A stretch of DNA of 42,684 bases from a virus (Duplodnaviria; Heunggongvirae; Uroviricota; Caudoviricetes), in IMG/VR virus record IMGVR_UViG_2529292907_000016; one strand, 5' to 3'. The notes under the pieces are model-generated. The model saw only the letters and a list, made by a program, of their open reading frames with translations, did no database searches and had not been told where the DNA came from. Shown piece after piece: positions 1 through 8,960 of this stretch; the stretch's first letter is position 1, and each line of letters starts with the position of its first letter. The position numbers and the translations under genes were made by a program.

Positions 1-933
1 TCATTCACTCTCTTTCAAACCAGTTTTAACTGTTTGTGGTTTTGGGTAAGGCTGGACTTTGAATAGCTTTGTGTTAAGGCGTTTTCTGGCTCTCTTGTCC
101 AGAAACCGGATGTAACGAAACTGACGGAATTTATGAACACTGGCTCTGTCGATATTAGCCCGCAGATGTTCACCTCGCTGTCCTCCTCGTTTGATTGCAT
201 TCTTGCAAATCTCGTGATACCACTCGCCATCAAGTTCATAGAATGTTGTTTCATGACTGCCTACATAATCAAAATTGCTTGCCTGGTACACGACACCAAG
301 ACAGCCACAACGCTCATCTGCAAACGACTGAACCCACTGCACCTGCGGATAAAGTTGTCTGATTAGTTTGAGCGCGTAACTGATTGCCCTTGATTCGGAG
401 TTTCTCGGCATACAGTCATGCAGCCATAACCGGTTAAGCTCCATATATTCGCGGTTCTGCGTGCCAGTTACGACGCGTGCACCATTGTTTGGATTAAGGG
501 CATAACCCCATTGCATTACGCCAACCAGCTCCCGTTCTGAAAATATGCCCAGATGAAGGTAGGAATTATTTACGAAACGATGGCTGTAATGTTTATTGAC
601 GACGACCAGCCGGGCCAGCCAGCAACTTATTGTCTCAACCCGTAACTCACGGGAGCCATAACCGACGATATTGTCGTTATAGTGAATAAGTTCAGGCGTG
701 CTGATGATACGGGATGTAACTTGCTTTCTGTTCCCCACGACAGGATTTCCTTGTGTATGTGGGGTGCTCTGTGGCGCTCTGAGATGTGATTTGATTGAGG
801 GTTTTACAGCGCGGACATTTAACTTCCAGATAACTGAAGCTGGCTCGTGCCAGTAGCTTGTTACAATGTCGGCACCGTATGTTTCGATACATGGCCGCAT
901 AACCTCCTGCTTTGTTGTTGATATCTTTATCAC
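1..933 (-). CDS. mom: Mom-like DNA modification protein; true start probably near the com stop (~700), not the GTG at 933
   Basis: Last ORF before the prophage right end, overlapping a Com-like zinc-finger ORF in another frame as in Mu com/mom; no canonical start codon seen in frame near com stop. Confidence 0.55.
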
Positions 934-937
934 TCAA
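692..937 (-). CDS. com: Com-like zinc-finger translational activator of mom (likely start at ATG 890-892, MYRNIRC...)
   Basis: Motif [10 protein letters not shown]...EVKCPRCK (C4 zinc finger) resembling Mu Com; overlaps mom 5' region. Confidence 0.65.
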
Positions 938-1030
938 TCGATCGACAAAAACGATCGATTTGATTTATTTAATTGATACAACAAATAACACGAAATGTCA
1001 TTAGCGAAAATTTATGAGTTTGATCACTAA
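936..1030. promoter_or_regulatory. Candidate mom/com regulatory region: three GATC sites and a perfect 9-bp inverted repeat (AATCGATCG / CGATCGATT)
   Basis: GATC at ~940, ~953, ~1022 upstream of com; Mu mom promoter is known to be controlled by Dam methylation of upstream GATC sites. Confidence 0.45.
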
Positions 1031-1148
1031 TTTTAAACGGTGCTGTAACGCATAAGTGCTGAATGATTGTACATTTGAATACCGCAAAGCAAACAAATCA
1101 ACTAATTTATAGAAGTCAATTGGTTAATTGCCAGCGTAAGAGGCTGCT

Positions 1149-1442
1149 ATGGACAATCATGTAACGACGAGAAATCGAAAAATGATTGAAAATGCGGAAA
1201 TCTATAATGATTATTTTTCCGATTATTCAGATGCCTGCAAATACAGTTCGAGTGCGGGAGAGTTCATATGCTTCAACTTTTTTATTAAATCTTATGTTTT
1301 TCCTCCACAGCAAGAAGATGGAGGTGTGCCACCTCCTGAAATCACTTTGCACCGTATAGCCTCCGTCTCAATGATGGAGCAACAGGCTAATGAGCTGTAT
1401 AGCATTCTGGGAACGATTCTACAAAAGCGTGAATCGGACTAA
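1149..1442 (+). CDS. Hypothetical protein (97 aa), AT-rich, divergent from com/mom
   Basis: ORF with RBS-like AAGAGG 7 nt upstream of ATG; low-GC relative to flanks. Confidence 0.4.
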   Translation: MDNHVTTRNRKMIENAEIYNDYFSDYSDACKYSSSAGEFICFNFFIKSYVFPPQQEDGGVPPPEITLHRIASVSMMEQQANELYSILGTILQKRESD

Positions 1443-1609
1443 TGATACCGGTTCATTTGCCTGCCCGGATGGGGAAGCAGGATTGACTGCTCCATAAGCA
1501 GCTATATTTCTGAATACGAAATACTATCCAGCGATTACATATGGCTGGATAGCGGCAAAGATGTTTTCATTAGTGTCAAACCGGCAGAGGACACCACCGG
1601 TTTGTATTG

Positions 1610-1864
1610 TTACATCATGGTACTGTCAGTTCCGGGCTGAGCCGGGTCTGGTTGCTCTGGCTGCGCGTCGGTTTTCGGCTCATTATCAGCATCACTGGCC
1701 GCAACTGCTGGCCCAATAAGTTTTGCCAGCACTTCATCAACGTAAGTGTCGATTTGTGCCTCAAAATCCTTGCGGACCTGCGCTTTCAGCAACTTATTTA
1801 CTTCACCGGAATACAGTGCCTGTTTTACCAGGTCTTCAGTGACGGTGCCTTTAATTTCTGGCAT
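1610..1864 (-). CDS. Hypothetical protein (84 aa), acidic Pro-rich C-terminus
   Basis: Strong RBS AAGGAGG upstream of ATG; antisense + ORF 1607..1993 looks like junk. Confidence 0.55.
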   Translation of the reverse strand: MPEIKGTVTEDLVKQALYSGEVNKLLKAQVRKDFEAQIDTYVDEVLAKLIGPAVAASDADNEPKTDAQPEQPDPAQPGTDSTMM

Positions 1865-1899
1865 GTATATCCTCCTTATGCGGGAATAAAGCCCTGCAA

Positions 1900-2094
1900 T
1901 CAGGGCTGGGTCGGGTCTTTTGGGAGCGGAGTTACCTGCGCTGTTTTACTGAGTTTTTCAGCTGCTGCGTCCTCAATTTTGCGGCGAACATAATTTCTGA
2001 TGGCCTTATAACCACCACTCACCAGATATAACGCACATACTGCCGTGCAGAAATACAATAAAATAAGCTGTAAAAATGTCATTATCCCTCCCAA
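1900..2094 (-). CDS. Small membrane protein (64 aa, one N-terminal TM segment)
   Basis: RBS GGGAGGG upstream; hydrophobic stretch FLQLILLYFCTAVCALYLV. Confidence 0.5.
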   Translation of the reverse strand: MGGIMTFLQLILLYFCTAVCALYLVSGGYKAIRNYVRRKIEDAAAEKLSKTAQVTPLPKDPTQP

Positions 2095-2177
2095 TTATTG
2101 ACATGGTGTTGACACCGGTAATATCTGTTAGGTAAAAAGGTGCACTGCATTTTTTGCTTTGGATATAACGATCTTTT

Positions 2178-2220
2178 TGCCGCCGGTTTCTTGTTTTCCC
2201 TTACCGGCGGCATTTTTTTA
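2178..2220 (+). terminator. GC-rich hairpin followed by T7 run (terminator-like on + strand; lies just 3' of the - strand esterase gene)
   Basis: Stem GCCGCCGGT...ACCGGCGGC followed by ATTTTTTTAT on + strand; on the - strand the hairpin is followed by A-rich sequence. Confidence 0.35.
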
Positions 2221-2226
2221 TCCTGC

Positions 2227-4281
2227 TTACGCGTTATTCACTTCCACCACGATACTGTCAATCAGTACCGGGTAAGTCGCATTTTTAGTGATATCGGTCA
2301 CGCGCAACTTGTCTGCCGTAAACGTGCCGACCGGAGACTGCGACAGCATGAATGGTGTCCCGTCCTTACCATCAATGACCGGCGTCACCTCAATACTGTT
2401 GTTACCGGCAAAACGGAAGCCCAGCGTATGCCATTCGTTATTAAATGCGCCGAATGACCCCAGCTTCGTGTTCTGCGCCGTGTTTCCTTTGTGATACATC
2501 ACGTTAAGGTCTGTGGCATCGCTCTGTACGTAGAACGATGCCAGCAGGTTATGACCGGCATTTCCTTCCAGAGTAACCCCTTGCGGCAGGGCAGAAACCG
2601 GCCAGTACAGCGCCAGTGCGTACTGATTAGCCGTAAGCGCGCCATCGAGTTTAAAACGACAACTGACAAGACCACCTTTACCCAGCAGGTCCGCACCATT
2701 ACCAGCATCATGCTCAAGGTACCAGGGGGCTCTTCCTGTTTCCTTGGTCAGTTTCATTGCCTTACCCCCGCTGGCTCCGGCATCATCCACGATTTGAGCC
2801 TTGCCACCTCCGGCAGCCCAACCCTGTGGTGTCAACCGTCCTTCAGACTCAGATGCCCGGTAAGCAAATAGCGTACTCATCGTCGTGGTGTCTGCGGGTG
2901 GCGTGGACGGTTTTGATGGTGTATCAGGTGACGGCTTCTCATCCGGTGGTGTCACGGTCTGCCCGCGCATCAGTTCAGCCGTGCGCCCTGCATGGAGCAT
3001 AATAGCTGAGGCCAGACGGTCTGAAATGACGCCCCTGCGTGCCCATGAGCTGAAATGGCTGTCACGCTGTGTCGAAACAAAACTGCCCTGGGTTCGGGAT
3101 GCTGCACCGTAATACCCGACAGCCACAATATCCGGGTCTTCCGCCGGAGCATTCGTTGGCGTGCTCTGTCCATTCTCATCCGTCAGGAACGGTACAAAGA
3201 AAATTTTCTGTGCTTCCTTGCCTTTGTAGCCACCGTATACTGCCTCATATTTATCGGTGCCAGCGTTTTTCCAGTAATACGTGGTATCTCCGCAAATCCA
3301 CGGCACCGTGGTGGCATTTCCACTCACGCACTGCGCAGCAAGCGGAGCCAGGTCAGTTCTGAACTGCTGAACCATGGCCGTGAATAAACTATTATGCTGC
3401 TGGCTTCCTGAGGCAAGGTCTGCCTCTCCCTGCATCCAGACCACAGCCAGAAGTTTGTTTTTCGGGTTTTTCGCCAGCGCGACTTTGGTGCGGCTTACCA
3501 GGTCCTGATACAGAGGTTTACCGGCCCCCCAGCGTGAAGAATCAGCGGAAGCACCGCTGGCCTCACTGAATGAGCCGTCGGCTCCAGTGGTGAATGCTGA
3601 CCCGCCACGACAACAGGGCACCAGAAGTATCCCGGCATTCTGTGGGATATAGGGAAGCAGTTTTTTGGCAATATGCAACCCCTGACCGACAGTCCCGTAC
3701 TGGCCTTTTGCCAGATCAGCTTTCGGGTGGTTTATCCCGCTCATATCCTGAACATCATGCAGGCAGTGGTCTGCCGGAATGATGTCGTTGTATGTACACG
3801 ACGTACCGTTGGGCGTTACCGTACTGCGGCGTGCCAGTTGCTTAATGCGTGGGTCCGGGCGGTCAAACGAATCCGGTAACGGCAGCCCCTCGCCGTAGGC
3901 CATGCCATTTGACTGACCCGCGAGAATGACAACAAAGTAATATTCCGGCTCTGAACTGCTGCCATTCGTGCTACCGGAAGGCCCGGCGTTATCCGGTGCA
4001 TTCCAGTCGGAGGGCGTGAGCGTTCCGGCCACGTCAGATGTGATTGGAATGATGCCAGTCACGCCTGAACTGGTGATTTCTGCACTGGGATTACCGGATA
4101 CCGGCATTACCCATAATGGCTCTTTCGTGCTGAAGCGGATCACGCAGTCTGCGAAGGTGATCCCCCCTTTATTACCCGAAGGGCGGAAAGGGCTTTCAAT
4201 AAATGCCACCGTGCCACCGGCAACCTTGACTGAAAACTCTCCGGGCATGGCGGAGAGCATTTTCCACTTGGAGTCTGACAT
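2227..4281 (-). CDS. SASA-domain (sialate O-acetylesterase, NanS/NanS-p-like) esterase with Pro/Thr-rich linker and C-terminal beta-rich domain
   Basis: Motifs ILAGQSNGMAYGEG and WMQGEAD typical of SASA family; no signal peptide; linker TPPDEKPSPDTPSKPSTPP. Confidence 0.6.
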   Translation of the reverse strand: MSDSKWKMLSAMPGEFSVKVAGGTVAFIESPFRPSGNKGGITFADCVIRFSTKEPLWVMPVSGNPSAEITSSGVTGIIPITSDVAGTLTPSDWNAPDNAGPSGSTNGSSSEPEYYFVVILAGQSNGMAYGEGLPLPDSFDRPDPRIKQLARRSTVTPNGTSCTYNDIIPADHCLHDVQDMSGINHPKADLAKGQYGTVGQGLHIAKKLLPYIPQNAGILLVPCCRGGSAFTTGADGSFSEASGASADSSRWGAGKPLYQDLVSRTKVALAKNPKNKLLAVVWMQGEADLASGSQQHNSLFTAMVQQFRTDLAPLAAQCVSGNATTVPWICGDTTYYWKNAGTDKYEAVYGGYKGKEAQKIFFVPFLTDENGQSTPTNAPAEDPDIVAVGYYGAASRTQGSFVSTQRDSHFSSWARRGVISDRLASAIMLHAGRTAELMRGQTVTPPDEKPSPDTPSKPSTPPADTTTMSTLFAYRASESEGRLTPQGWAAGGGKAQIVDDAGASGGKAMKLTKETGRAPWYLEHDAGNGADLLGKGGLVSCRFKLDGALTANQYALALYWPVSALPQGVTLEGNAGHNLLASFYVQSDATDLNVMYHKGNTAQNTKLGSFGAFNNEWHTLGFRFAGNNSIEVTPVIDGKDGTPFMLSQSPVGTFTADKLRVTDITKNATYPVLIDSIVVEVNNA

Positions 4282-4355
4282 CGTCTTTTCTGCCTGTTTC
4301 TGAATTAAACAGAGTCAGAATAGCGACCGCTGAAAAATATGTGTTTTGCGGAAAT

Positions 4356-4387
4356 TCAAAAAAGCGTCACGGTACTTTTGGTGACGG
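4356..4387 (-). terminator. Intrinsic terminator at the 3' end of gin
   Basis: Minus-strand RNA: stem CGUCAC/GUGACG with 10-nt loop followed by CUUUUUUG; stem overlaps the last gin codons. Confidence 0.55.
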
Positions 4388-4939
4388 AGCTGGTGAGGCA
4401 GGAAAATAACGATAAAGGGTGGAAAGGCCAATATCAAATATCAGTGCGATTTGTTTACGGGACTCGCCATTAGCCAGCAAACGGGCGATTTGCTCCCGCT
4501 CTTTCTCTGTCAGTTTCTGAGGTCTGCCGCCATGACGCCCCTGAGCACGGGCAGCAGCAAGACCCGCGCGTGTACGTTCAATAATGAGTTCCCGCTCCAT
4601 TTCCGCCAGCGCGCCCATTATATGGAAAAAGAAACGTCCCATGGGAGTGGATGTATCAATATTGTCCGTAATGCTGCGGAAGTTAACGCCGCGTTGCCGG
4701 AGTTCTTCTGTTAAAAGGACAAGGTGCTGCATACTGCGTCCAAGGCGATCCAGTTTCCAGACCAGCAGGGTATCCCCTGGCCGGAGTCGCTTTAATGCGC
4801 GTTTAAGTCCGGGACGCTCCCTTGTCTTACCGCTTATTCTGTCTTCGAAAAACAGCTCACATCCTGCACATTCCAGCGCATTTCTTTGTAGCGCCGTATT
4901 CTGGTCATTTGTTGACACCCTGATATACCCAATCAGCAT
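4367..4939 (-). CDS. gin: Serine DNA invertase (Gin/Hin/Pin/Cin family)
   Basis: N-terminal MLIGYIRVSTNDQ (catalytic Ser region), resolvase fold and C-terminal HTH; adjacent to inverted recombination sites. Confidence 0.9.
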   Translation of the reverse strand: MLIGYIRVSTNDQNTALQRNALECAGCELFFEDRISGKTRERPGLKRALKRLRPGDTLLVWKLDRLGRSMQHLVLLTEELRQRGVNFRSITDNIDTSTPMGRFFFHIMGALAEMERELIIERTRAGLAAARAQGRHGGRPQKLTEKEREQIARLLANGESRKQIALIFDIGLSTLYRYFPASPAPSPKVP

Positions 4940-5004
4940 ACGATTTCCTTATTATAAAAAGCCGGAATTGTCGCATGAGGAATAAAACAGAGTTAATCCT
5001 GGCT

Positions 5005-5030
5005 TTCCTGAAAACCTCGGTTTACGGGAA
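5005..5030. other. gix-like recombination site A (26 bp, 12+2+12, core TC)
   Basis: TTCCTGAAAACC TC GGTTTACGGGAA, an imperfect palindrome matching the Gin/Hin site architecture. Confidence 0.6.
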
Positions 5031-5140
5031 ACGGTAAACAGGGCGGCGAATGCTCTGCCATCGGACGGCACCGCCGTTGCCGCGAATAGACTCGCCACCC
5101 CAAGAAATATTAATGGGGTTCCCTTTGACGGGACGCAGGA
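5019..5140. repeat. Inverted repeat arm (~120 bp) matching 6213..6333
   Basis: ~62 bp near-identical plus ~27 bp identical block in reverse complement, separated by a diverged core. Confidence 0.7.
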
Positions 5141-5378
5141 CATAAACATCACTTCTGGTATAACACAGCAGGATGCGGATTCCCGATATATCCAGGATAT
5201 CAGGCTGGGAGCAGAGAACAGGCAGGTAATGTACGGTGGGGCATATTACTCTGCGTACGGTAATGTTATGGCAGGCCTGCAGATTGACAGTAAAGTTGAT
5301 GCTTCAAACGATTTTATAGCATTCAGACCCCTGCAAAAATTAGTCGGAGGTACATGGATTACGGTATCTCAGTTATAA
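5019..5378 (+). CDS. Alternative tail fibre C-terminal segment (Sv'), no own start; expressed only after inversion
   Basis: Open frame from site A encodes [26 protein letters not shown]..., matching residues of S at the constant/variable junction; stop TAA at 5376-5378. Confidence 0.55.
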   Translation, partial: GLRETVNRAANALPSDGTAVAANRLATPRNINGVPFDGTQDINITSGITQQDADSRYIQDIRLGAENRQVMYGGAYYSAYGNVMAGLQIDSKVDASNDFIAFRPLQKLVGGTWITVSQL

Positions 5379-5429
5379 ATAGTCAGTAAATAATATATTT
5401 TAAAACAGATTTATTTCCAGGAGGATTTT

Positions 5430-5951
5430 ATGGAACTAAAAAATATAACCCGTTATTATCCTGAAAATATGCCATATGGTAATAATGTTCAGTATTTCCA
5501 GAGTGAAGATGGTAAGGATTTCTACGAATCCCTGCCATTATTCACCAAAAAATATAAACTTTGCATAACACCTGACAGCGGCGTTATCTGCTCAATATCA
5601 CAGGACGCCTCGGCGCTGTATCCTGCGGGGTTTTCTGTGGTTGAGGTCGATGAACTCCCTGAAGGCACGGATATTTCAGGAAACTGGAAGTTTGATAATG
5701 GCATAATCTCCCGTATTCCGGTTAACTACGCAAGAAAACTGGAAGCAATGCGCCAGTCATATCTTAATCAGGCATATGAAAAAATTAATGACTGGAGAAC
5801 GGAGCTACAACTGGGCACCATCAGCGATGAAGACAGAGCAGCACTTACCCAATGGATGGCATACATCAGTCAGGTGAAGAAAATGGAACTACCCGCCATT
5901 AAAACAGAAGCTGAATTTAACGCCATTAAATGGCCTGAGCAGCCACAGTAA
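5430..5951 (+). CDS. Tail fibre assembly protein (Tfa/U-like)
   Basis: 173-aa ORF directly after Sv' inside the invertible segment; size and position typical of tail fibre chaperones. Confidence 0.75.
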   Translation: MELKNITRYYPENMPYGNNVQYFQSEDGKDFYESLPLFTKKYKLCITPDSGVICSISQDASALYPAGFSVVEVDELPEGTDISGNWKFDNGIISRIPVNYARKLEAMRQSYLNQAYEKINDWRTELQLGTISDEDRAALTQWMAYISQVKKMELPAIKTEAEFNAIKWPEQPQ

Positions 5952-5982
5952 TAAAGAAGGCCGGAAGGCCTTCTGAATATCA

Positions 5983-6864
5983 TTATATACTTGCAGCCGT
6001 CACCCATGCTCCATTTAACAGATACTGCAACGGCCGGTAATACACGCCGCCGACGTTATCTGCCGTATTCTTACCGACATCCTGTACTTTAATTCCGGTA
6101 AGAACATTGCCGCCCCCCAGATTCAGATCCCAGCTTTCCCATGTTCCGGGCATATGTGCGGTCACCGACCCCAGTCTTATGGCGGTTACTGTTCCTGATG
6201 AGATAGTGATATCCTGCGTCCCGTCAAAGGGAACACCATTAATTGTGTGGGCATTTGCCAGCCTGTTCGCGGCAACGGCGGTGCCGTCCGATGGCAGGGC
6301 ATTCGCCGCCCTGTTTACCGTTTCCCGTAAACCGACGTTATCGATAAAAGCCCCTTTATCCGGAATGTCTGCGCCGTTCTGCTCCCTGCGCAGGTAACGG
6401 TTATCACCTTCGCTTTTGCTGTAAACATCCAGATTATTACGGGCGGTTCCCTTATTCTCCAGGTCGGCGAGATTCTGATCCTTCGCCAGGGCATTAACGT
6501 CAGCGGGACCAAGACTGTTTTTTGTGGCAAGCGTCCCCAGACCAAGATAACCACGGGCCAGACGCTGGGCCTCCGCACCGGCATCAGCAATTTCTTTCAG
6601 GTTATTTTTCCGGGAAAAGGCATTCGCAGCGATAATGGCTTTAATGGACAGCGTAAGCTGGTTTAACTGCGCCTTATCCGGCTGAATACTGGCTTCAGCC
6701 AGAATATTCAGCAGTTCGGCCTGGAGAATATTCAGCCAGTCCTGACCAATCCAGCTGATACCTTTTTGTCCGTCACCTTCGGTAAACCAGGTGGTGGTAT
6801 TACTCTGCGCCGGTGCCAGCGCAGGCATATTCGCCACGCCGGAATTATTATCAACATGAAACAT
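5983..6864 (-). CDS. Tail fibre protein (S-like; constant part 6864..6336 joined to variable part 6335..5983 in this orientation)
   Basis: ORF spans recombination site B; follows the baseplate genes. Confidence 0.75.
6213..6333. repeat. Inverted repeat arm matching 5019..5140
   Basis: Reverse complement aligns with 5019..5140 (one mismatch in the first 62 bp). Confidence 0.7.
6322..6347. other. gix-like recombination site B (core GA), inside the tail fibre gene
   Basis: TTCCCGTAAACC GA CGTTATCGATAA; inner half-site is the exact reverse complement of the inner half of site A. Confidence 0.55.
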
Positions 6865-7424
6865 TAAATAGTCTCCTCTTCATGGCTGTTTGCATAAACG
6901 TAAATAAACGTCTGCCATGCAGGCTTATAACGGTTCAGAATACATTCCAGCGCACCGCCTTCATAAATACGCAGCGGCGTGAGAATATCATCCAGCACAT
7001 TCATATTCCGGTAGCCGGTTTCACTGTTAATCGTGACAATACTGACCCACTGCGAATCCGGTGAGGGCTGAATGTCAATCTGATAACCAAACTCCGCCGC
7101 AAACCGGATATAAAATTCACGGTTCAGCGAGGGCTTCATCCGGTATTTATTTCCGGCATAACGCTGTCGCTCCGTGAGGGTGGCTCCGGCCATATCACAC
7201 TCGGGAAGCCCGAGATAACGCTCCCAGTCTTCCAGCAGCAGGCGCGACGTGTCAGGGAAACGCTCGGCAAGCAGCTGTTTACCCGTCCAGGATACACGCG
7301 CTGTCGAATGACTGAGGCCCAGACATAATGATGCCAGTACGGATGACGGACGCTTGTCCCATGCCAGCCCGTCAGGCAGTAACTGCAACAGGGCGCGCTG
7401 ATGCGGGGTCAGGGTTACAGCCAT
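6864..7424 (-). CDS. Tail protein (Mu gp48-like)
   Basis: Position between baseplate J-like gene and tail fibre, as in Mu. Confidence 0.55.
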
Positions 7425-8497
7425 GTGATTTCTCCTACCGTCAGCAGCTCACTGTCTCCCGCCTGAACTGACGTCAGCGGACTGCGCACTTCAAAATCCT
7501 CCAGATTTTTCACCCCTGCCACCGCCCGCCAGAAAGACGACGGCAGAACCAGACCGCCGGGCCGGGATTCGTTATACAACAGGTCGGTCAGCGCCTGTTT
7601 TACGGCCGCCTGATTCTCCGGTGTTTTCGGGATGATCCTGATGCTGAAGGGCACCGGCTTATTGGTCAGTTTAAACACGGTCACCGTCGGCCCCAGAGGC
7701 TGTCCGACAGGCTGGCCGGTCGCCGGATCATCATGACTGCGGATATAATCCGCCACCCGCTGAACATCACCGTCACCGGGGAAAATATCCGGGTTATTAT
7801 CCTGAACAAACGTTACCCCCACGCTGCCCGCCTGCGGCCATTCCGGGCGGCACCATGCCCGCGTCACGCCCGGCACTTCACGCGCCCAGCGTTCAAAATC
7901 ATACTGCGTGCCGCCGGACGGTGGATTCTGCACCCGGAAAACCAGACGGGAAAGCAGCTCCGGCACGGTTTCCACATCCGCACCACCGGTGATCCCCGTT
8001 CCGGTCACCGTGGCCGTCTGGTTGATCCCCGCCTGCGGTGTGATAAATGTCAGTTTTGTCCCTGCCGGGGCATTCCCCGCACGACCGGCACTTTCGGCTT
8101 CCACACTGACATTCAGCGTACCGGCCTTACCGGTCAGGGAGGTGGTGATACGGTAAACCACGCCATCACTTCGCTGGAGAAGCACACCTTCCTTGATCCC
8201 CGCATCCGTGGTCAGCATCAGCTGAACCGGCCCGTCCCCCCGAGAGGCAGGCTTACGCATGACGCCCCAGAATGCACAGTGTTTCAGCAGTTCGGCTTCA
8301 TCGGCTTCGGTCGGGATGATCTGACGCGCAATCCAGGCCAGATGCTCATGCTCCTGAGCAGATAACCCTGCCTGAGCGTAAGCAATGGCATTCAGGGTGG
8401 TTTCATTCACACCCGGCTGCGAGCCGGGCAGGCGCTGGCTGATATCCTGCTGTGTCTGCGTGATTAACTGTGCCAGCGGTAAAGGCTGATAAGGCAT
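7415..8497 (-). CDS. Baseplate J-like protein (Mu gp47-like)
   Basis: 360-aa ORF in the baseplate cluster; synteny. Confidence 0.7.
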   Translation of the reverse strand: MPYQPLPLAQLITQTQQDISQRLPGSQPGVNETTLNAIAYAQAGLSAQEHEHLAWIARQIIPTEADEAELLKHCAFWGVMRKPASRGDGPVQLMLTTDAGIKEGVLLQRSDGVVYRITTSLTGKAGTLNVSVEAESAGRAGNAPAGTKLTFITPQAGINQTATVTGTGITGGADVETVPELLSRLVFRVQNPPSGGTQYDFERWAREVPGVTRAWCRPEWPQAGSVGVTFVQDNNPDIFPGDGDVQRVADYIRSHDDPATGQPVGQPLGPTVTVFKLTNKPVPFSIRIIPKTPENQAAVKQALTDLLYNESRPGGLVLPSSFWRAVAGVKNLEDFEVRSPLTSVQAGDSELLTVGEITWL

Positions 8498-8934
8498 TAC
8501 TCCCCCTTAAGATCAGCATAAAAAATCATGGGCCTCACTGAACCATCAGGCAGGGTTATGCGCACCGAAAGCGCCAGCCGCGCGTGTCCCACACGTTCTG
8601 CATGACAGACCACGGATGACGCCACGCCATCCTGACTGAGCCAGCCCAGCGCCTCATCCGCGTAAGCACGGGCACGGCTTATCACCGAGGCCAGCGTTTT
8701 TTCCCGGCTGAGAAGCCACAGACGGGAGCCAATGGGGCGCGGGCGAAAACTGTCTCCCCACCATCCCCGGCGGTCGCGCGTACCGTCAGGGATTTCATCC
8801 GATGCCAGCGCCCGGCGGTCAGTAAACAGCGAAATCAGAACGGCCGTCAGCAGACTGTCATCCGTCAGCAGGTCGGCACCGTTCAGTTGCAGCGAACCGC
8901 ATCCCTGATCCCACACAATTGCAATATCAGCCAT
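8497..8934 (-). CDS. Baseplate protein (Mu gp46/W-like)
   Basis: 145-aa ORF after the spike gene; native ATG overlaps the reconstructed stop of the upstream gene (ATGGCTGA). Confidence 0.65.
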   Translation of the reverse strand: MADIAIVWDQGCGSLQLNGADLLTDDSLLTAVLISLFTDRRALASDEIPDGTRDRRGWWGDSFRPRPIGSRLWLLSREKTLASVISRARAYADEALGWLSQDGVASSVVCHAERVGHARLALSVRITLPDGSVRPMIFYADLKGE

Positions 8935-8952
8935 TCTCCGGCACTCCTGTCT

Positions 8953-8960
8953 TACTGCCT
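8953..8960. repeat. 8-bp target site duplication TACTGCCT (IS66 element, lower side)
   Basis: Identical 8-mer directly flanks both ends of the element. Confidence 0.65.

Follow-up and report, generated by a model that had tools for sequence, protein, structure and literature searches.

How can a tail fibre switch with two alternative tips operate with a single fibre assembly gene? The question is raised by positions 4,940 to 6,864 of the virus record IMGVR_UViG_2529292907_000016, a 42.7-kb stretch (42,684 nucleotides, "the window" below) belonging to a compact, probably Sp18-type, Mu-like transposable prophage of E. coli. Gin/gix inversion switches and tail fibre assembly (Tfa) chaperones are textbook subjects. 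Tfa is usually treated as the dedicated partner of the fibre gene just upstream, and the invertible P1 C and e14 P segments have one Tfa gene per orientation. The switch in the window is ordinary in kind, and the departure is one Tfa instead of two. The account we favour, with somewhat more confidence than doubt, is a Gin/gix host range switch with two tips, a single Tfa that would serve both, and repeat arms that are occasionally converted.

The first-pass annotation of this DNA had proposed two 26-bp gix-like sites bounding a segment of ∼1.3 kb, and both sites are present. The gin-proximal site (5005-5030) reads TTCCTGAAAACC-TC-GGTTTACGGGAA, with its core TC at 5017-5018. It is aligned with Mu gixR and lies directly upstream of gin. 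Its inner half-site is GGTTTACgGGAA where Mu has GGTTTACAGGAA. The partner site (6322-6347) reads TTCCCGTAAACC-GA-CGTTATCGATAA, with its core GA at 6334-6335, and falls inside the fibre open reading frame (ORF) at approximately codon 177, a position homologous to that of Mu gixL inside gene S, in which the Mu annotation places the G segment boundary. Both sites could be aligned column for column with gixL and gixR. The sites are mutually inverted and their cores are 1317 bp apart. The 2-bp cores, TC and GA, are reverse-complementary, which is what inversion by a serine invertase requires. The invertase gene, gin (4367-4939, minus strand), encodes 190 amino acids beginning MLIGYIRVSTNDQ and contains the Pfam domains Resolvase (1.6e-51) and HTH_7 (4.9e-15). 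The protein matches the Mu Gin structures 4M6F and 3UJ3 over residues 1-184 (E=2.5e-88) and gamma-delta resolvase at only 2e-29. As in Mu, gin lies outside the segment and its transcription is directed away from it. The gene is intact and 100% conserved among prophage copies. The Gin-family invertase and inverted gix sites show the element to be the host range switch of a Mu-like E. coli prophage.

The fibre ORF in its current form (5983-6864, minus strand) encodes 293 amino acids and the whole fibre matches phrog_1833 (6.7e-141). Its constant N-terminal part, Sc (6336-6864, minus strand, ∼177 amino acids), lies outside the segment and is 49% identical to residues 1-191 of Mu S. The expressed variable part, Sv (5983-6333, minus strand, 116 amino acids), carries the tip designated T1 ("trans"). 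The silent C-terminus, Sv' (5019-5378, plus strand, 119 amino acids), carries tip T2 ("cis"); it has no start codon and is fused to Sc after inversion. Flipping 5019-6333 in silico produced a fibre of 296 amino acids followed by the Caudo_TAP gene at 5430-5951, the arrangement that the first-pass annotation had predicted. Inversion exchanges the last ∼116 fibre residues for a 119-residue alternative. Both variable parts are ∼117 amino acids long and end in a ∼70-residue tip domain of the Mu S/S' type. T2 is homologous to Mu S residues 435-502. T1 is similar to the short-fibre tip of phage phiTE (E=1.3e-10), and its likeness to Mu S' is weak. The paper reporting the phiTE structure, the closest solved tip, is silent on any chaperone for it.

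Gin-dependent inversion had been predicted from the window alone, and the inverted form was found in natural isolates. The genome set surveyed comprised 5,426 complete E. coli genomes. The window form was present at full length and ≥99% identity in at least 17 of these. The in silico inverted form, 2701 bp, was present at full length and 99.7-99.9% identity in four (DLI.5a, TOE17, NCCP 13983 and FORC_043). In NCCP 13983 the segment is flipped, and a 296-residue fibre is annotated with tfa following on the same strand. Alignment of the NCCP 13983 and window junctions placed the reciprocal exchange within 39 columns (92-130) beginning at the gix core, inside the gix site and inverted repeat. DLI.5a and TOE17 each have two prophage copies, one per orientation. 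Among IMG/VR loci of the compact family, tfa was convergent with the fibre in 13 and co-oriented in 6, and both orientations were present for every set of tip alleles, including the O157-type and T5-type sets. Comparison of these isolates shows the predicted inversion to occur in nature, with both orientations represented.

The Tfa gene (5430-5951, plus strand, 173 amino acids) lies within the segment. An AT-rich spacer of 51 nt separates it from Sv', and its Shine-Dalgarno sequence is AGGAGG. The product matches Pfam Caudo_TAP (4.8e-19) and passes PF02413 with 69.2 bits against a cut-off of 22.1. It also matches phrog_136 (4.7e-56) and, over residues 18-153, Mu U in 5YVQ_B (E=4.2e-16). In the window tfa runs in the same direction as the silent tip and converges on the expressed one. 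The first-pass annotation described the expressed variable part as short and without a downstream chaperone. There is indeed no Tfa on the strand of the current fibre, which ends at a hairpin, but shortness does not set this part apart, since the two are equally short (116 and 119 amino acids). A second chaperone gene, which had been named as grounds for abandoning the proposal, was not found in the window by tblastn with three Tfa queries at E values up to 10. The small ORFs at 5522-5704 and 4952-5152 gave no Tfa in Pfam and PHROG scans.

The hairpin (5955-5974) is a GC-rich, terminator-like site between the convergent stops of tfa and the fibre gene. Its predicted folding energy is -16.4 kcal/mol (z=-3.4), and it is likely a bidirectional terminator. 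In the O157-type allele the hairpin sequence is different, yet a 9-bp stem occupies the same place. Likewise, the stem is AGAAGGCC/GGCCTTCT in the window and AAAGGGTGC/GCACCCTTT in locus L013 and related loci, with position and form the same. The spacer between Sv' and tfa is AT-rich and 51-120 nt long among the loci; in Mu, S and U are just 2 nt apart. This length leaves room for a promoter.

Is the single Tfa a peculiarity of this prophage? A tblastn survey yielded 81 related loci, mostly from a viral contig search with Sc alignment; the genome contig search with Sc alignment contributed one locus (Pantoea). Three layouts are pertinent. The classic Mu layout, found in 11 loci plus Mu, consists of Sc, a long Sv, a tip and Tfa, followed by a reversed Tfa, tip and Gin. 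The compact layout consists of Sc, a tip, one Tfa, a tip, Gin and a gene with a sialate O-acetylesterase (SASA) domain. The locked layout has lost the second tip and most of gin by deletion. One Tfa was found in 36/36 compact or locked loci and two in the 11 Mu-proper loci. In the same 36/36 loci, tfa is without exception convergent with T1 (the window Sv) and T3 (the O157-type Sv) and co-oriented with T2, T4 and T5. This perfect linkage of tip class and tfa orientation excludes flipping of tfa by itself. The compact layout was found with three sets of tip alleles, in both orientations, and Tfa alleles combine freely with tip alleles. On the loci surveyed, the single-Tfa layout is fixed in the compact E. 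coli prophage family and is not the product of a missed gene. The first-pass annotation called the one-sided layout unusual, which is true relative to Mu and P1, but it is standard in this common family.

Other loci in the survey depart from these layouts. In L008 (6001-8889, Candidatus Pantoea persica) the C-terminus of a 576-residue Mu S-like fibre ORF looks like a Tfa fused to it; next come a 149-residue tail collar-like ORF on the reverse strand and an invertase, and a second Tfa is absent. L047 and L048 have a Mu S-like N-terminus (76-77% identity over ∼130 amino acids) with the SASA/DUF6645 gene ∼2-2.5 kb further on. Tfa, a Mu-type tip and gin are not detectable in these two, which presumably have a different, non-invertible fibre. 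In L016 the switch is decaying: gin is frameshifted and the expressed tip truncated (7537-8107, 6359-6490).

The locked loci have one deletion in common, by which the second tip, one gix site and gin codons 1 to ∼161 were lost. The common junction indicates a single origin. This lineage was found in eight IMG/VR loci (L004, L013, L015, L017, L020, L025, L026 and L033) and in seven complete E. coli genomes from several unrelated sources (M1/M3/M18, JE86-ST05/ST02, S1-CAM-01-A and CI5). In all of them tfa is convergent with the fibre. Locked copies bear either T1 or T3, so tips must have been exchanged after the deletion. tfa is an intact ORF of 173 amino acids in the 9/9 locked loci translated (the eight IMG/VR loci and M3), and in six further locked genomes a tail fibre assembly gene is annotated at this position. 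Pairwise ratios of nonsynonymous to synonymous substitution (dN/dS) for locked-lineage tfa are 0.11-0.23. The locked copy in S1-CAM-01-A, which lies in bcsA, is a Mu-like prophage of full length whose structural genes are all annotated as intact. Some hosts have two Mu-like copies, and some such copies are oppositely oriented. In JE86-ST05 an invertible copy lies ∼120 kb from a locked one, and paired copies also occur in IMG genomes 2617271340 (L043/L044) and 2617270962 (L013/L015).

The segment is bordered by inverted repeat arms at 5005-5158 (left) and 6194-6347 (right). The left arm encodes a shaft peptide shared by the two variable parts (38 residues), and the right arm contains the fibre-internal gix site. 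Running inward from gix, 5010-5095 matches 6257-6342 (86 nt, 93% identity), and a second block matches 5109-5158 with 6194-6243 (50 nt, 84% identity). The repeat had been reported as ∼120 bp; the whole arm is ∼150 bp, compared with 34 bp in Mu and SfMu (PMC4406740). Peptide blocks in the arms change arm from locus to locus. The identity of the two arms within a single locus ranges from 66% to 99%, being 97-99% in L043-L045 and 66-86% in the other relatives. The mean within-locus identity (0.815) is not higher than the between-locus mean (0.811). The proposal that the repeat could drive gene conversion survives in reduced form: the data fit occasional, episodic homogenisation of the arms, as L043-L045 suggest, and show no overall excess of identity within loci.

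Does the window orientation, in which the fibre lacks a co-transcribed chaperone, produce a working fibre? The Sv tip has a dN/dS of 0.13-0.15 at a dS of 0.34-0.38 when compared with the diverged alleles of STEC2017-197 and SCU-171. By this estimate (∼0.14) the T1 tip is under purifying selection. Purifying selection, the predominance of this orientation, the spread of a lineage locked in it, and the locked prophage of S1-CAM-01-A, complete in length and with its structural genes annotated as intact, together indicate that the window orientation is functional and not defective.

Having one Tfa serve both tips is the best-supported answer to the opening question, and we infer it from several observations. 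First, the locked lineage lost the only tip that is co-transcribed with tfa yet keeps tfa intact. Second, tips resembling T1 and T3 carry an adjacent Tfa elsewhere. The fibre of the non-invertible relative L076 has a T3-like tip (60% identity, E=4e-30), and 14 nt beyond it begins a co-oriented tfa whose product is 61% identical to that of the window; in the Mu-type relatives L059, L070 and L072 T1-like tips are directly followed by their own Tfa. Third, the mixing of Tfa and tip alleles is what would be expected of a generalist Tfa. In this switch Gin recombines the gix sites, and the 1.3-kb flip joins Sc to either of the two ∼117-residue C-termini. According to the shared-Tfa model, fibre and tfa would be read together from the late operon in the co-oriented state. 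In the window state, where tfa is convergent behind the hairpin terminator, its transcription would have to start either on the gin side or in the spacer that precedes it. How the expression of tfa relates to the switch is a narrower matter, and we put it at slightly less than an even chance that the single Tfa serves both tips and is expressed in either orientation, from the late operon or an orientation-independent promoter, or else that the switch toggles Tfa and so changes both tip and cap. If tfa is expressed in this way, the locked lineage would represent a natural phage in which transcription of the fibre chaperone gene always opposes that of the late operon.

Several points weigh against a shared Tfa and an operating switch. 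The requirement of either tip for Tfa is presumptive. Consensus promoter scans of the window and two relatives gave no excess over shuffled sequences, leaving a tfa promoter in the convergent orientation unsupported. Candidates from position weight matrix (PWM) scans vary by allele and reach just the 87th-99th percentile of background; among them is a promoter-like ATGATA/ACGATA-17-TATAAT candidate carried by the locked-lineage junction. The Mu C-box (TTAT-N6-ATAA), visible in Mu Pmom, was not evident upstream of tfa, where no de novo search for a late promoter motif was made. tfa diversity in the locked lineage could have come by recombination with invertible relatives, so the low dN/dS is not clean proof of selection after locking. 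The recombinational enhancer is a further concern. In Mu this Fis-bound element acts in cis and lies inside the 5' part of gin. The 5' part of the window gin is ∼80% identical to Mu DNA, a comparison confounded by coding constraint. One match to the Fis consensus, at gin nt 71-85, is kept in Mu, the window and the O157 type, under the same confounding constraint. A second Fis site at the expected spacing in gin was not found. Finally, an IS66-family element (8961-11726, 2,766 bp) with an 8-bp target duplication (TACTGCCT) and minus-strand ORFs for TnpB-like and DDE_Tnp_IS66 proteins lies within the 3' end of baseplate gene V, 26-33 nt short of its stop codon, with gp46 immediately downstream. 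The element, standing between the baseplate genes and the fibre operon, probably breaks up the late tail operon, and this copy may be tail-less or polar-defective for the fibre operon. Despite the insertion, gin, the gix sites and every other component of the switch remain intact.

The strongest alternative, which we consider unlikely, is that T1 and T3 fold free of chaperone. Tfa would then serve only the co-oriented tip, perhaps also as a host-binding cap, and the switch would toggle between Tfa-free and Tfa-capped fibres. It would explain why tfa can be co-transcribed solely with T2, T4 or T5, and it is compatible with the lack of a significant tfa promoter in the convergent orientation, where late transcription would run antisense to tfa. 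It does not account for the co-oriented Tfa that follows T1- and T3-like tips wherever the locus is not of the compact invertible kind (L076, L059, L070 and L072), nor for the locked lineage, which would have no tip in need of tfa and still keeps it (nine intact ORFs, six annotated genes).

The chaperone for the window orientation might instead be supplied in trans by the Tfa of other resident prophages. Tfa alleles do seem interchangeable among tips, and E. coli hosts often have multiple prophages, with second Mu-like copies in JE86-ST05, DLI.5a and TOE17. A phage infecting new hosts cannot count on their prophage content, and the intact tfa of the locked lineage would be unexplained. We regard supply in trans as improbable. 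Still less credible is a switch that works by RecA-dependent flips between the 150-bp arms in place of Gin, or one that mainly benefits the host, like PinQ/e14 StfE2. The arms are long enough for homologous recombination, gene conversion tracts are present, and a host defence role for prophage fibre inversion has been reported (PMC12529663). Against these stand the exchange within 39 columns containing the gix core, the conservation of gin, the match of the sites to Mu gix, and a prophage that otherwise resembles a complete phage. Least probable of all is that the window orientation is an OFF state of an on/off phase variation, with misfolded fibres on non-infectious particles; the lack of a co-transcribed chaperone speaks for it, and against it are purifying selection on the Sv tip, the greater frequency of this orientation in lysogens (at least 17 genomes versus 4, and 13 IMG/VR loci versus 6), and the spread to unrelated strains of a lineage fixed in it, with one copy at a Mu-type insertion site in bcsA.

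The preferred reading, one Tfa shared by two tips of a Gin/gix switch, can be set beside known systems. The Mu G segment (S-U/U'-S') has the same order of gp47, gp48, fibre, invertible segment and gin, with com-mom further on. It also has a homologous Gin, gix sites that correspond base for base and occupy the same place in the fibre gene, an Sc 49% identical, and the same tip domain family. It differs in size, at 3.06 kb compared with 1.3 kb here. The Mu variable parts are ∼330 amino acids compared with ∼117, and the ∼240-residue middle shaft is missing here. Nothing lies between gin and com-mom in Mu, whereas a gene for a 684-residue SASA/DUF6645 protein does here. Mu has two Tfa genes, one downstream of each C-terminus, as the first-pass annotation stated and the Mu annotation bears out; here there is one. 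The window Tfa belongs to the same family as the TfaMu-type proteins (5YVQ), with the difference that one protein is available for two tips and is convergent with one of them. In this family the N-domain, which binds the fibre, is variable, and the C-domain, which trimerises, is conserved (PMC9608196, citing North et al. 2019). The P1 C segment with Cin and the e14 P segment with Pin are invertase switches of the same kind acting on alternative fibre C-termini (e14: PMC12529663).

The closest match is the O157:H7-type allele set (strain 13E0780 and many O157:H7 genomes), which has the identical compact layout and flanks 78-86% identical to the window. It has tips T3/T4 in place of T1/T2 and a Tfa allele 61% identical. 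We infer that these loci are probably Sp18 of O157:H7 Sakai. Sp18 is described as intact, its DNA is reported to be packaged into particles, and it has been described as having an "invertible host-specificity region" with genes unlike those of Mu (PMC2669165); that account does not mention a single-chaperone layout. Two Stx-converting phage records, L001 (LC727881) and LC727895, each carry an O157-type Mu-like phage as an insertion. They were the only matches for the compact family in the phage collection searched, in which no isolated virion genome was found. A systematic survey of inversions lists only the classic two-Tfa Mu type (PMC9881135). CP066032, in which a Mu-like fibre inversion was confirmed by long reads (PMC9881135), was considered as a further example and rejected because it is of the classic type and not compact. 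Full-text literature searches found no description of the single-Tfa layout or the locked lineage.

The remainder of the window is consistent with a Mu-like prophage. The JE86-ST05 prophage is 99.9% identical over window positions 1-8960 and lacks the IS66 element. Its annotation includes the Mu transposase A/B, Mor/C, lysis, head, tail and baseplate proteins, gp46, gp47 and gp48, followed in order by the fibre, recombinase, DUF6645 protein, com and mom. Of these, gp47, gp48 and Mom were confirmed by Pfam in the window. The gene between gin and com-mom (2227-4281, minus strand) encodes a protein of 684 amino acids in which a SASA domain is joined to a C-terminal DUF6645. Every compact and locked relative has a version of it (50-100% identity), and it may be a second, enzymatic host recognition or O-antigen-modifying protein. 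Host genes occupy 38498-42684 beside the left end of the prophage (an RHS fragment, ybfC, ISAs1 remnants, ybgA and phrB). At its other end the window breaks off within mom, and the ORF at 1-933 is cut by the window start.

In all but its single Tfa the element is typical of a class that is well understood. Phage host range engineering copies fibre and chaperone as a pair. The compact family offers a natural system in which to study the specificity of Tfa-tip recognition and the uncoupling of Tfa expression from the late operon. Its switch is the smallest of the Mu type in the survey (1.3 kb, with fibres of less than 300 amino acids), which makes it convenient for engineering, and its locked lineage, with tfa fixed on the strand opposite the fibre, has been successful.

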